The translations under genes were made by a program, and so were the position numbers. Source: Candidatus Thorarchaeota archaeon (GTDB lineage: Archaea; Asgardarchaeota; Thorarchaeia; Thorarchaeales; Thorarchaeaceae). From it: a DNA stretch of 64,000 bases. The notes beneath the pieces are model-generated. The model was not told the origin of the DNA. It did no database searches and worked only from the letters and a program-made list of their open reading frames with translations. Of the stretch, positions 5,660-26,083 are shown piece by piece. Positions within the stretch are counted from its first letter, which is position 1. Each line of letters begins with the position of its first letter. The stretch is from contig JBHLRQ010000003.1 of NCBI GenBank assembly GCA_048882385.1, forward strand, positions 11,126-75,125. Direction: 5' to 3'.

Positions 5660-6121
5660 TTAGGCTCTCGGTGGACGCGGAATCTCTCGCAAGGTTTCAA
5701 TGTCTTCAACCCATTTTGCGAGTTCTTCACTAATTCCATTCATGAATGTTAGGAGAGTCTGTTGGTACTTTCGTAAATGCTGTTGTTCTAATTTACTAGA
5801 TTTGGAAACAAAATCTTTGACGCGTTTTGGAAACCCAATAGACCACCTACGAAGCATCAGCTCTGCCTTTCGGTCTTCAAGTACTTTTTTAGCCATTCTG
5901 AGTTTCCTTCTCTTGGTAATCAAATCTTCAAGGAGCTTCTGCATTGTAATCGTGGCTGCAACGAGTTCCTTCGCGTCAAGTTTGCTGTCTTGGTTGCGGC
6001 TTGTGTAGTATACACGCTTTAGATCTCTCTTTGCACTCATTACATGAGTCAAAAGTCTAGTCAATGAATGTACCATGGCACTCTTTCCTTCAGTTATTGA
6101 CGTAAAAAGGTCTGTGTTCAT
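5660..6121 (-). CDS. hypothetical basic (K/R-rich) coiled-coil protein
   Basis: 153-aa ORF with no recognisable motif. It lies 14 nt downstream of the Cas4-like nuclease core gene on the same strand, so it is probably the third gene of that operon. Confidence 0.4.
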   Translation of the reverse strand: MNTDLFTSITEGKSAMVHSLTRLLTHVMSAKRDLKRVYYTSRNQDSKLDAKELVAATITMQKLLEDLITKRRKLRMAKKVLEDRKAELMLRRWSIGFPKRVKDFVSKSSKLEQQHLRKYQQTLLTFMNGISEELAKWVEDIETLREIPRPPRA

Positions 6122-6135
6122 GTATGTCTTACTGA

Positions 6136-6825
6136 TTAAAAAGCCGAGTAATTACATCTGTCCCTGCTATATGGACAAGCTCTACATTTCTCCTTCTCAG
6201 GAGAAGGCTTTGGTTTGCGTCCTCTATACCAAATCTCATCTATCTTTTCGAGAGATTTGATCACTTTATTTGGATCAAATTGGCTAATGTGGATCTTACC
6301 TCCTCCGCAACCCCAACAATCCTTCATGGAGTTGCCTTCCATGCATCTTATTGCCTGATCTTGGAGGCAATAGACATTGATTAGAAGGGTTGTTGAACAT
6401 GAAACGCCGCTCTCATATAGAGCAAGAGCATAAAGCCCCGTTTGAAACATATCTTCAGGTCTTTTATTTTCCGGCAGATATTTGGTTGGAAATTTGTGTT
6501 CAATGATTAGATCAAGTACGGGGGTGTCTTCCCAATGAAATATTGCTCTATCGAATCTTCCAATGAACCGGTATCCTAATGACCTTACAGTTTCTTCTGA
6601 GAATGAATAGTATTGTCCTAAACCCCATCTACTAGGCTTCAAATGAAGAAATTCGTATAAAGTCCAGGGAGCTGGTAATGCCCTACGAATCTTCATCTTA
6701 ACTGTGTAAAACCTTTTTCGATGTTTGAACATGAAGAGGATAACTATGCAACCAAGAACGACTACCCATATCAATAGATTAGCGTAAGCATCCATTTCCT
6801 CACCACAAGATCCACAGTACACCAA
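6136..6825 (-). CDS. Cas4/RecB-family PD-(D/E)xK nuclease core with N-terminal TM anchor and C-terminal Fe-S cysteines
   Basis: Motif II GRFDRAI, motif III VLDLIIEHK (hhhExK), QhxxY motif FQTGLYALALYE, and C-terminal CRACPYSRDRC (Cx2Cx6C). Compare S. solfataricus Cas4: GRADAII, IVIEIKTS, QLQIYLWL, CKYCIFSVIC. A hydrophobic helix LLIWVVVLGCIVILFMF sits near the N-terminus. The track start is TTG at 6825. An in-frame ATG at 6795 (MDAYANLL...) sits 4 nt after the stop of the upstream 88-aa ORF and is the more likely start. Confidence 0.5.
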   Translation of the reverse strand: MVYCGSCGEEMDAYANLLIWVVVLGCIVILFMFKHRKRFYTVKMKIRRALPAPWTLYEFLHLKPSRWGLGQYYSFSEETVRSLGYRFIGRFDRAIFHWEDTPVLDLIIEHKFPTKYLPENKRPEDMFQTGLYALALYESGVSCSTTLLINVYCLQDQAIRCMEGNSMKDCWGCGGGKIHISQFDPNKVIKSLEKIDEIWYRGRKPKPSPEKEKCRACPYSRDRCNYSAF

Positions 6826-7066
6826 GAACTATCGCAACGACTATGATAAGAAGAGGAACTATCTTGGTTTCTTTACTATCAGCTAAGGATGGAACTTGAT
6901 CTGATACAAGTCTATGTAGAACTGTGCCGGTGACGCCTGCATCAGATGATGAATCACCAACTCTCTGTTTCAAGAGAAGTCTGTATTCACATTGAAACTG
7001 CGTTCTTAGATCTGACACCTCTCTAAGCCAATTTTCCGGTCGCCGATCAACCTCTTTCAGTTTCAT
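6800..7066 (-). CDS. small protein carrying the Cas4 N-terminal Cys motif followed by a C-terminal TM helix; split partner of the nuclease core
   Basis: VSDLRTQFQCEYRLLL resembles the Cas4/RecB N-terminal motif (v[ST]DLxxyxxCPR[KR]hhh). The C-terminus IVPLLIIVVAIVLGVLWILW is a TM helix. It is directly upstream of, and out of frame with, the nuclease core ORF. Confidence 0.4.
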   Translation of the reverse strand: MKLKEVDRRPENWLREVSDLRTQFQCEYRLLLKQRVGDSSSDAGVTGTVLHRLVSDQVPSLADSKETKIVPLLIIVVAIVLGVLWILW

Positions 7067-7205: not shown

Positions 7206-7628
7206 ATGTCAGACGAAACCTATGAAGGAGCAACTGCCGGACGAGTACTAGTATTTGATGATAGTGAAACCGTGAAATTTCCCGCGGCTTTCAAGAATGC
7301 AATGGGAACAGGTCAAGGCCTTATGGTTCTTGTACACAAGGACCGACTAATCAAGATTTTTCCCCTCGAAACCAACGAGGTTCTATTTCTCAGCCTTGAG
7401 ATTGGAAAGCTAACAAATGATTTCCTAACTAAGCTTTCACAAATCTTCAAGAAATCAGGGCTGGTAGACCTTCTATTTTCGACAGGTGTTTGCCTAAGAG
7501 GAACTAGATGTTTCTATGAGTGTTATTTCAATCCAGCTCAACTCAGTGCGGAACTATCTGAGCTCGAAGACTCATTGAGAGTACTTGATGGTGTACAGAG
7601 AGTAGTTATCAATCAAGTATCCGTGTGA
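7206..7628 (+). CDS. AbrB/MazE-type (swapped-hairpin) DNA-binding domain protein
   Basis: The N-terminal segment VKFPAAFKNAMGTGQGLMVLVHKDRLIKIFPLE fits the SpoVT/AbrB pattern (h.hP...R..hGh..Gd.h.....dg.h.h.P). Its stop overlaps the DedA-like start by 4 nt. Confidence 0.4.
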   Translation: MSDETYEGATAGRVLVFDDSETVKFPAAFKNAMGTGQGLMVLVHKDRLIKIFPLETNEVLFLSLEIGKLTNDFLTKLSQIFKKSGLVDLLFSTGVCLRGTRCFYECYFNPAQLSAELSELEDSLRVLDGVQRVVINQVSV

Positions 7629-25890: not shown

Positions 25891-25967
25891 TTGAATTAAC
25901 CTCTTTAACTAGTCGTACTAAGTTAAAGTGGAAGTTAAAGAGAAATTCCGTCAAATGAGATTTTTTT

Positions 25968-25981
25968 ACGTCAATTGACGT
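25968..25981. promoter_or_regulatory. perfect 14-bp palindrome ACGTCAATTGACGT flanked by T-tracts
   Basis: Read directly in the spacer after the Mrr-like gene and before the permease gene. It is flanked by TTTTTTT and TATTTTTT. Confidence 0.3.
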
Positions 25982-26083
25982 ATTTTTTAGAAAAGCTTCT
26001 CTTATCGTGGTTTTCATTCAAATGTTCAACTGATTATAATGACCTGATTCTTTAAATATCAGGAAATGTCTTGTAGTGAACCA

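Follow-up and report, generated by a model that had tools for sequence, protein, structure and literature searches.

To our knowledge, members of the Cas4/EXO5/AddB/Dna2 class of Fe-S nucleases are soluble single domains. Within one and the same chain, the Fe-S cluster acts as a 'staple' between the N-terminal helix and the C-terminus. In eukaryotes, EXO5 processes flaps or 5' ends in the course of replication or repair, and the nuclease domains of AddB/AdnAB, Dna2 and the nuclease-bearing DinG are soluble and helicase-fused. Single-chain prokaryotic EXO5/Cas4-like relatives of about 250 aa carry the IMG label 'Cas4 (RecB family)'. Solo-Cas4 is found outside CRISPR loci (Hudaiberdiev et al., 2017, PMC5704561), and the words 'transmembrane' and 'split' are absent from that phylogenomic study. 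A membrane-bound anti-phage nuclease, SNIPE, has been described in E. coli (Saxton et al., 2026, PMC13190303). A literature search for split or membrane Cas4, or for EXO5 in Asgard archaea, found nothing relevant, and we know of no earlier description of a two-gene, membrane-anchored member of this enzyme family.

The locus reported here lies on the minus strand of a 64-kb window (the whole stretch of Thorarchaeota DNA that was analysed), and its three ORFs have the coordinates first given for them. orfA (6800-7066) encodes 88 aa, a putative tail-anchored small subunit bearing the N-terminal portion of the nuclease domain; orfB (6136-6795) encodes 219 aa from its ATG, a putative signal-anchored large subunit with the nuclease core, an alternative start being the TTG at 6825; orfC (5660-6121) lies downstream of orfB. 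At the gene junction (6793-6806, minus strand) TGG is followed by the orfA stop TGA (6802-6800), the 4-nt spacer GGAA and the orfB ATG (6795-6793), in agreement with the preliminary description of a start codon 4 nt past the stop of the small ORF; the reading frame of orfB is offset by +1 from that of orfA. Translation of orfB is probably coupled to that of orfA, since a Shine-Dalgarno-like (SD-like) GGTGAGG (6804-6798) overlaps the orfA stop. SD-like motifs are found 5' of about half of the ORFs in the window. The best explanation of the whole, and one that we regard as reasonably probable, is that orfA and orfB each encode half of a single EXO5/Cas4-type PD-(D/E)xK nuclease with an Fe-S cluster. 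The two pieces would apparently have to come together on the inner side of the cell membrane to form the enzyme.

Taken together, orfA and orfB provide a catalytic D ... (D/E)xK on a restriction-endonuclease-like fold, and the cysteine pattern of the Cas4/AddB/Dna2/EXO5 clade (one N-terminal and three C-terminal cysteines) is present, but on two polypeptides; the cluster itself is predicted. All of the motif residues given below are invariant among the 31 distinct genomic orfA/orfB pairs over which invariance was scored. In orfA, the first Fe-S cysteine, C26, belongs to VSDLRTQFQCE (6986-7018, minus strand) and aligns with the invariant first cysteine of the single-chain relatives and with residues 51-69 of human EXO5 (VTDLATQNWCE); the cysteine that the preliminary description had placed in a separate 88-aa upstream ORF of another frame is this one. 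Further along orfA, the RecB-type motif I GTVLH (6914-6928, minus strand) contains G47 and H51, which align to the invariant G59 and H63 of the single-chain relatives, and H51 is taken by us to be a metal ligand, from knowledge of the RecB/Cas4 family. The remaining motifs are in orfB and occur in the order first read, as a full Cas4/RecB set: GRFD (motif II, D82; 6550-6561), EHK (motif III, E99 and K101; 6493-6501), QTGLY (the QhxxY motif, Q118 and Y122, aligned to EXO5 FQVSLY; 6430-6444) and CRACPYSRDRC with the C-terminal Fe-S cysteines C204, C207 and C214 (6154-6186), all on the minus strand. The last of these aligns to EXO5 KCRTCTYA-DIC and to the C240/C243/C249 triad of the single-chain relatives. 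An extra, lineage-specific Cys4 of orfB, C143-x7-C151-x8-C160-x2-C163 (6307-6369, minus strand), is also invariant in 31/31 pairs, and its sequence would make a second metal site possible.

Profile searches place the pair in the same class. Against a gathering cut-off of 22 bits for PDDEXK_1 (PF12705), orfB alone scored just below it (21.2 bits), orfA and orfB joined scored above it (24.1 bits), and the joined sequence with the transmembrane region deleted scored 23.7 bits; matches to this family were found in 11/24 and 7/21 family members. The PADLOC Cas4 profile matched at E 4e-8 and TIGR00372 at E 3e-6, the latter with 27.1 bits against a curated cut-off of 65, and PF01930 (Cas4) was likewise below its cut-off (15.8 against 22.7 bits). 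Of the original Cas4-like label, the assignment to Fe-S PD-(D/E)xK nucleases was thus borne out, whereas the Cas4 cut-offs were not reached and, as judged from sequence, the closest characterised relative is EXO5 and not canonical Cas4. Exo5 (PF09810, cut-off 25 bits) matched only three of the 21-24 family members (best E about 1e-4), and the Pfam search gave no Exo5 match for the orfA and orfB of the source locus; the nearest single-chain relatives pass that cut-off with 31-38 bits.

Profile-profile alignment suggests how the two ORFs fit together. With hhalign, orfA 13-56 aligned to residues 25-68 of the single-chain relatives (probability 92.9%, E 3.8e-7) and orfB 42-219 to residues 72-254 (probability 99.4%, E 4.8e-21), so that by sequence the two proteins tile one soluble single-chain EXO5/Cas4-type nuclease of about 250 aa, with the hydrophobic pair described below falling between residues 68 and 72 of that chain. 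Human EXO5 was matched in three collinear pieces by the transmembrane-deleted profile, including orfA 12-30 to EXO5 51-69 at E 0.0054; the orfB profile alone matched EXO5 at E 0.094. An AF2 model of an artificial orfA-orfB fusion, built from unpaired homologues that MAFFT had aligned with the N-terminal helices of orfB on the orfA helix columns, had a pLDDT of 78, with the core above 90, and Foldseek related it to EXO5 (8e-5) and Cas4 (1.5e-4). Its pLDDT is below 50 at orfA 30-67 and at the last residues, and 63-71 over the C-terminal cysteine region, and for this reason the model does not show a convergence of the four cysteines or of H51.

Hydropathy and the AF2 helices together suggest that orfA and orfB are single-pass membrane proteins, each with one hydrophobic helix of about 20 residues oriented according to the positive-inside rule. 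The predicted C-terminal transmembrane helix of orfA, IVPLLIIVVAIVLGVLWILW (6803-6862, minus strand), has a KD19 mean (Kyte-Doolittle mean over a 19-residue window) of 3.23 and corresponds to AF2 helix 69-88 in the numbering of the fused orfA-orfB; that of the orfB N-terminus, followed by a K/R-rich stop-transfer stretch, ANLLIWVVVLGCIVILFMF-KHRK (6715-6783, minus strand), has a KD19 mean of 2.76 and corresponds to AF2 helix 93-112. The same windows recur in every family member, which upholds the earlier observation of a helix in both ORFs: in orfA there is one at the extreme C-terminus (KD19 mean 2.0-3.5, with a tail of 0-2 residues), and in orfB one at the extreme N-terminus (KD19 mean 1.9-3.3), with 1-10 residues before it and K/R after it, including 8 K/R in the 15 residues past the helix in the source orfB. 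The two helices are located exactly at the break in the nuclease chain. The transmembrane pair also gave weak Pfam matches to holin, TrbC and ABC_membrane, which were rejected as hydrophobic-helix noise.

An ORF downstream of orfB was found in 31 of 36 loci; none was recovered in the other five, where in most cases the contig ends soon after orfB. orfC (minus strand) measures 153 aa from the ATG at 6121, and its conserved start probably lies further in, at the ATG at 6076, which leaves a core of 138 aa. The '153-aa basic coiled-coil protein' of the preliminary description is indeed basic (pI 10.3), with a C-terminal IPRPPR tail, but it was modelled by AF2 as a four-helix bundle (pLDDT 90.6) and not as a long coiled coil. 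Its 155 homologues (64-94% identity) show the same synteny. No specific match was obtained for orfC: Pfam and NCBIfam were empty, the PDB profile search returned only a designed homeodomain (E 0.05), and the Foldseek matches of the orfC model were all generic helical bundles, none better than E 0.09. A JGI label of 'RNA polymerase subunit F' on one homologue was rejected given this lack of Pfam, NCBIfam and specific structural matches. orfC is lineage-specific and a likely partner of orfA and orfB.

The orfA/orfB split is genuine and old, as had been preferred at the outset. Protein searches recovered 46 orfB homologues and 30 orfA homologues (75-105 aa), nearly all of the same lengths as the source proteins and down to about 40% identity, and restricted to Thorarchaeia-type MAGs, a single Asgard class. 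In 35/35 related loci orfA lies directly upstream of orfB, so that homologous split pairs do occur in other genomes, and among these loci neither gene was found apart from the other. A stop codon and 2-6 nt separate the two genes, with one exception, a 4-nt overlap. In the source locus no more than 4 nt and a shift to the +1 frame lie between the two ORFs, as a single-base indel would produce, and the split might on that account be a MAG artefact or a recent frameshift pseudogene in which the real gene is one ordinary Cas4-like ORF. We give this a negligible probability, since the layout recurs in 35 independent assemblies from many studies at identities down to about 37-40%, every junction has both a stop and a start codon, the frame relation varies (20 loci at +1, 14 at +2 and one at 0), and lengths are tightly kept (82-89 aa for orfA, 215-221 aa for orfB). 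In addition, a fused protein of about 300 aa was absent from the hits of the orfA and orfB protein searches and from the 21 cluster representatives (112-252 aa, E<1e-30) retrieved from a library of 1.84 billion representative proteins. Reading the two ORFs as one would not restore an ordinary soluble Cas4 either, since both hydrophobic helices remain. Some orfB homologues of 254-261 aa, considered as possible fusions, were rejected as start-codon miscalls overlapping orfA in another frame.

Programmed recoding, by ribosomal frameshift or TGA read-through, would instead join both ORFs into one polypeptide, a nuclease with a transmembrane hairpin in its interior. The very short spacer and a TGA stop in 32/35 loci are in keeping with this, as is locus L030, in which the two ORFs share a frame with only TGA and 6 nt between them. 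The possibility is nonetheless a very slight one: no single recoding event could serve the whole family, because frame relations differ between lineages, no conserved slippery sequence was found at the junction, two loci have a TAA stop, and orfB has its own start codon at every locus, ATG in most, with an SD-like GGTGA 5' of it. It is also conceivable that orfA, a small membrane protein, is unrelated and does nothing to complement orfB, the latter acting alone or being an inactive nuclease relic. The orfA profile alone retrieved only noise from the PDB (TetR, E 0.6) and a weak Pfam Dna2 match (E 0.027), and AF2 placed orfA 30-67 with low confidence. Against this, orfA aligns to precisely the N-terminal segment that orfB lacks, collinear with EXO5 51-69, its invariant residues are the first Fe-S cysteine and the motif-I glycine and histidine of the family, and it keeps company with orfB throughout; a relic is unlikely given that all of the catalytic residues of orfB are invariant. 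An unrelated orfA is consequently regarded as very improbable, and the reading of orfA and orfB as two halves of one nuclease is retained below.

When compared with the closest described systems, the Thorarchaeota proteins share with EXO5/DEM1 (PF09810; human structures 7LW7-7LWA), their best PDB sequence match, collinearity over three motifs, and with EXO5-type relatives the motif order V[ST]DLxxQxxCE, GxxxH, D, ExK, QxxxY and CxxCx5-7C. EXO5 is a single soluble polypeptide with the N-terminal motif, whereas here that motif is in orfA, the enzyme is encoded by two genes with two hydrophobic helices inserted at the break, and an extra invariant Cys4 is present; moreover, the family is below the Exo5 gathering score, is confined to Thorarchaeia-type MAGs and has orfC downstream. 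Likeness to Cas4 (PF01930, TIGR00372) lies in the PADLOC match, and solo-Cas4 also lacks a CRISPR context, but orfA and orfB remain under the curated cut-offs, have the EXO5-type N-terminal motif and are split and, by prediction, membrane-anchored, and their locus shows no association with cas1/cas2 or a CRISPR array. Unlike AddB/AdnAB, Dna2 and DinG, they have no helicase and have predicted membrane anchors. The likeness to SNIPE is one of functional analogy only, with no homology claimed: SNIPE is a bacterial single protein with other domains in defence contexts, whereas the Thorarchaeota genes belong to the core genome.

The absence of CRISPR array, cas1 and cas2 from the window, reported previously, was supported by the present survey. 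No direct-repeat families within 150 nt were found in the window, which has only one 40-nt tandem repeat, and none of its 61 ORFs of at least 90 aa matched Cas1, Cas2 or an effector; the flanks of the related loci were also free of other cas genes. The 2023 PADLOC library gave no match other than Cas4, and no defence genes adjoining the source locus were identified with Pfam and PADLOC. A syntenic block of PheRS, aRF1, orfC-orfB-orfA, DedA and CpXC is present in all loci. Pfam matched the neighbouring DedA membrane protein (DedA/VTT) and zinc ribbon (CpXC) as first annotated, whereas the 140-aa neighbour called 'AbrB-like' had no Pfam match and in NCBIfam only PRK08577 (E 0.0012), so that this annotation was not upheld. 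The divergence of orfB follows that of aRF1 (r = 0.78, n = 23), and mean identities of 43% for orfA, 50% for orfB and 82% for aRF1 indicate that the nuclease genes evolve faster than their neighbours; either an arms race or weak constraint would fit. Vertical inheritance and synteny mark the locus as a block of the core genome and not as a mobile defence island, and this context does not favour the defence function that was suggested earlier.

As to assembly, an ancestral single chain may have been interrupted by two hydrophobic helices after the motif-I helix (GxxLH), the gene then having been broken between them. orfA would be tail-anchored, its cytoplasmic N-domain (about 60 aa) leading into a single transmembrane helix that stops 0-2 residues short of the C-terminus; orfB would be signal-anchored in an N-out/C-in topology, with 1-10 residues outside, the transmembrane helix, the K/R stretch and a cytoplasmic core. 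We infer that the helices pair antiparallel in the membrane and so join the halves on the cytoplasmic face, where both chains would contribute to the four-cysteine metal site (C26 of orfA with C204, C207 and C214 of orfB) and to the catalytic site (H51 of orfA with D82, E99, K101, Q118 and Y122 of orfB). Neither orfA alone nor orfB alone would be expected to form an active nuclease. Heterodimer formation, bridging by the Fe-S cluster and topology are proposed on these grounds, and a substrate and biological role may be suggested in the same conditional sense: by analogy with EXO5 and Cas4, the activity should be that of an end-dependent ssDNA, flap or 5'-end nuclease, and a tether at the inner membrane face would limit it to DNA ends appearing there.

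The role that we consider the likeliest is the degradation or processing of linear DNA that enters the cell when a virus delivers its genome, or by conjugation or uptake; the chromosome, having no ends, would be spared. This proposal is tentative, with the balance somewhat against it, and it is weakened by the vertically inherited core-genome context, which is unlike that of a defence island. The same two-piece membrane nuclease might otherwise have a housekeeping role in flap or 5'-end processing, acting in replication or repair at membrane-attached chromosome sites. The position of the genes among translation genes (PheRS, aRF1) in a vertical block, the lack of adjacent defence genes, the status of EXO5, the nearest characterised relative, as a genome-maintenance enzyme and the RPA-like OB-fold genes that adjoin a single-chain Heimdallarchaeota relative would all suit this role. 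A membrane tether is hard to rationalise in a general repair enzyme, however, orfA and orfB evolve far faster than the flanking housekeeping genes, and the restriction of the family to one Asgard class indicates that the nuclease does not meet a universal need; overall, the housekeeping role appears rather doubtful. A fuller version of the proposal on incoming DNA, which we consider speculative and rather unlikely as a whole, would have the nuclease active only once the tail-anchored and signal-anchored subunits meet in the membrane, the inter-subunit Fe-S cluster and composite active site forming an assembly (possibly redox) switch. Linear DNA ends would then be destroyed or processed while crossing the membrane. 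This would be a counterpart in archaea, derived from EXO5, of self/non-self discrimination by location, and orfC would be a regulator or DNA-binding partner of the nuclease.

If the two-piece reading is true, an Fe-S staple and a catalytic metal site would join two membrane proteins into a natural split enzyme, the first membrane-tethered member of the Cas4/EXO5/AddB/Dna2 class. With such a split design, what the cluster does for the structure can be tested directly, as without the cluster no heterodimer would be expected. The split nuclease is also a conserved, lineage-defining trait in an Asgard class about whose cell biology very little is known, and if it acts on incoming DNA, location-based immunity or DNA-uptake processing would be extended to archaea.

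The minus strand of the window carries a run of three ORFs: orfA (7066-6800, 88 aa), bearing the N-terminal Fe-S cysteine and motif I; orfB (6795-6136, 219 aa counted from its ATG), the nuclease core; and orfC (6121-5660, 153 aa, or 138 aa from a conserved internal start at 6076). The source is a Candidatus Thorarchaeota MAG; ACFFE6_04505 and ACFFE6_04510 at NCBI match orfA and orfB, in that order, at 100% identity. All the nuclease motifs listed in the preliminary description were found in the window where it had placed them. After the orfA stop codon, TGA (6802-6800), come the four nucleotides GGAA and the orfB ATG, in the +1 frame relative to orfA. An SD-like GGTGAGG (6804-6798, minus strand) overlaps this stop and precedes the orfB ATG by 2 nt; such motifs precede around half of the window ORFs, and translational coupling of orfA and orfB may reasonably be supposed.

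The split between orfA and orfB is real. Thirty-seven related loci were collected. Wherever sequence precedes orfB, at 35 loci counting the window, its immediate upstream neighbour on the same strand is an orfA homologue; the homologous split pairs sought in related genomes were present at all 35. The orfB homologues (n = 46) are nearly all 211-230 aa and those of orfA (n = 30) nearly all 88-89 aa, with identity falling to about 40%. The stop at the junction is TGA in 32 loci and TAA in two, followed after 2-6 nt by a start codon, with one GTGA overlap; orfB is offset from orfA by +1 in 20 loci, by +2 in 14 and by 0 in one. The layout recurs across independent assemblies, keeps its stop and start codons, and occurs in three frame relations; on these grounds an assembly error as the source of the split is excluded, and a family-wide programmed frameshift or read-through joining the two ORFs is very unlikely; the genuine two-gene split favoured in the preliminary description is thereby upheld over a frameshift artefact. 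Run exhaustively against 1.84 billion representative proteins, a profile reached E<1e-30 for only 21 clusters; these are 112-252 aa long, and none has the length of a fusion. The few database entries of 254-261 aa were rejected as fusions, being start-codon miscalls that read over orfA in another frame. Individual loci vary: orfA is shortened to 53 aa in L025 (353-1244), possibly by a frameshift in that MAG; orfA and orfB share one frame in L030 (3872-4799), with only TGA and 6 nt between them; and the orfA stop and orfB start overlap (GTGA) in L033 (3840-4757).

Direct HMM matches are consistent with a nuclease identity but weak. Alone, orfB scored 21.2 bits against Pfam PDDEXK_1 (cut-off 22) and E 0.015 against Cas_Cas4, while orfA matched the Dna2 N-terminal region at E 0.027; matches to PADLOC Cas4 (4e-8) and TIGR00372 (3e-6) were also obtained. 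Of the Cas4/PD-(D/E)xK assignment proposed earlier, the PDDEXK_1 part stood, with joined orfA and orfB clearing the cut-off at 24.1 bits, and the Cas4 part fell short of the curated cut-offs. Beyond the family, profile searches reached soluble proteins that consist of one chain, about 250 aa long, named 'Cas4 (RecB family)' in IMG and including one from a Heimdallarchaeota MAG, which score above the Pfam Exo5 cut-off and also match PDDEXK_1. In profile-profile alignments, orfA 13-56 corresponds to residues 25-68 of these relatives (probability 92.9%, E 3.8e-7) and orfB 42-219 to residues 72-254 (99.4%, E 4.8e-21). Since the two alignments tile the single chain, orfA and orfB together span it end to end, with orfA 57-88 and orfB 1-41 inserted at a single site behind the motif-I helix. 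This comparative tiling we take as the decisive evidence for identity. A chimera profile with the TM segments deleted matched human EXO5 in three collinear pieces (E 0.0054 vs 0.094 for orfB alone), one aligning orfA 12-30 to EXO5 51-69 (VTDLATQNWCE). P0102 (236 aa; Heimdallarchaeota contig JADCLS010000004.1, L038 859-5711), the closest EXO5-like single chain from an Asgard genome, is encoded immediately downstream of two RPA-like (OB-fold) genes, and its gene overlaps one of 573 aa without known function; this neighbourhood points to a replication or repair setting for the unsplit enzyme.

The orfA and orfB of the window were modelled as a fusion in AlphaFold2 with unpaired homologues; mean pLDDT was 78, rising above 90 across the orfB core. 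Foldseek against the PDB returned human EXO5 (8e-5), type I-C Cas4 (1.5e-4), and also MGME1, Dna2 and AddB; the predicted fold can be assigned securely. The model is poor at orfA 30-67 and at the C-terminal cysteine region, so neither the cluster site nor the placement of H51 can be read from it. Invariant residues in 31 distinct pairs are R15, L20, Q23, C26, G47 and H51 of orfA, and G79, D82, E99, K101, D115, Q118, Y122, C204, C207, P208 and C214 of orfB. The motif-I histidine is a metal ligand in RecB/Cas4-type nucleases; if that holds here, the two chains would jointly form the active site as well as the Fe-S site. Outside the canonical cluster ligands, a second Cys4 motif, C-x7-C-x8-C-x2-C (C143, C151, C160 and C163 of orfB; 6307-6369, minus strand), is invariant in 31/31 pairs and may be a zinc site or second cluster site. 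Some single-chain relatives (P0100, P0106 and P0113) carry a CxxC...C...C insert at this position.

The TM helix described for each of orfA and orfB was borne out by hydropathy in every member and by the model. A single 19-residue stretch (Kyte-Doolittle mean 2.0-3.5) is located at the extreme C-terminus of orfA, with 0-2 residues beyond it, and one (1.9-3.3) at the extreme N-terminus of orfB, with 1-10 residues ahead; the model folds them as a helical hairpin (residues 69-88 and 93-112, fused numbering). Lysine and arginine follow the orfB helix, making up 8 of the 15 residues after it in the orfB of the window. Three considerations, namely the positive-inside rule, a DNA substrate and the dependence of Fe-S assembly on the cytoplasm, lead us to infer that both soluble halves lie on the cytoplasmic face.

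orfC was found downstream of orfB in 31 of 36 loci, the other five being mostly contigs that end soon after orfB. Its 155 homologues (64-94% identity) come, where a source is named, from Thorarchaeota-type MAGs, one labelled Odinarchaeota. The protein is basic (pI 10.3) and is modelled with confidence as a four-helix bundle (pLDDT 90.6) with a conserved C-terminal IPRPPR tail; sequence and structure searches gave no specific relative. The simplest guess is that orfC partners or regulates the nuclease. Between orfB and the conserved start of orfC lies an in-frame N-terminal extension containing NTDLFTS (6077-6121, minus strand); it is conserved among the window, L007, L008 and L014, is missing from more distant loci, and represents an alternative start or else a nucleotide element under conservation, such as an orfC promoter.

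The surrounding block comprises PheRS-alpha, aRF1, orfC-orfB-orfA, an MFS gene in some loci, a 140-aa protein, DedA/VTT and a CpXC zinc ribbon, with orientations kept in essentially all loci. Divergence of orfB and aRF1 is correlated (r = 0.78, n = 23), and orfA and orfB (mean identity 43% and 50%) evolve faster than orfC (65%) or aRF1 (82%). The locus is a vertically inherited core-genome neighbourhood, not a defence island. As previously noted for CRISPR array, cas1 and cas2, no CRISPR-like repeats were found in the 64-kb window and no Cas1, Cas2 or effector genes among the 61 ORFs scanned. The 140-aa protein (7206-7628, plus strand), divergent from orfA, is present in every block and as conserved as aRF1 (61-93% identity); its former 'AbrB-like' label was not confirmed: Pfam gave no match, and NCBIfam gave PRK08577 ('hypothetical protein', E 0.0012) alone. 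Single-ORF PADLOC matches among the 61 ORFs were to Csa3/CasR/CARF-type regulators (~1e-11), mad3 (3e-29), mad8, AriA, IetS and subtilase, and a defence-like or signalling gene may lie elsewhere in the window. The sole tandem repeat is intergenic and T-rich (25949-25988; 20-nt unit, 1.9 copies).

By sequence comparison, the family appears to belong within the Fe-S PD-(D/E)xK clade, its nearest kin being EXO5 and the single-chain relatives of EXO5 in prokaryotes. It scores below the curated cut-offs of both Exo5 and Cas4 and lacks CRISPR association, and is not classed as Cas4 proper. Split or membrane-anchored members of this clade are not described in the Cas4 phylogenomics survey (PMC5704561) or the PD-(D/E)xK superfamily survey (PMC3424549), the latter mentioning transmembrane elements generically only. 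Relative to these two surveys, the nuclease type would be known and the split, membrane-anchored layout new.

We propose that two bitopic membrane proteins, orfA and orfB, would rebuild one EXO5/Cas4-type Fe-S nuclease at the cytoplasmic face of the membrane, and consider this two-piece architecture highly probable. A housekeeping role in genome maintenance is equally permitted by the core-genome context and EXO5 kinship, and the Heimdallarchaeota single-chain relative adjoins RPA-like genes; we regard this role as rather unlikely. EXO5/Cas4 enzymes are end-dependent, and a tether would hold the enzyme off the bulk chromosome; for these reasons action at the membrane on the linear ends of incoming viral, conjugative or environmental DNA is tentatively favoured. 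In bacteria the membrane-bound nuclease SNIPE cuts injected phage DNA (PMC13190303), which offers a precedent, by analogy only, for the action on incoming DNA that the orfA/orfB nuclease may perform.
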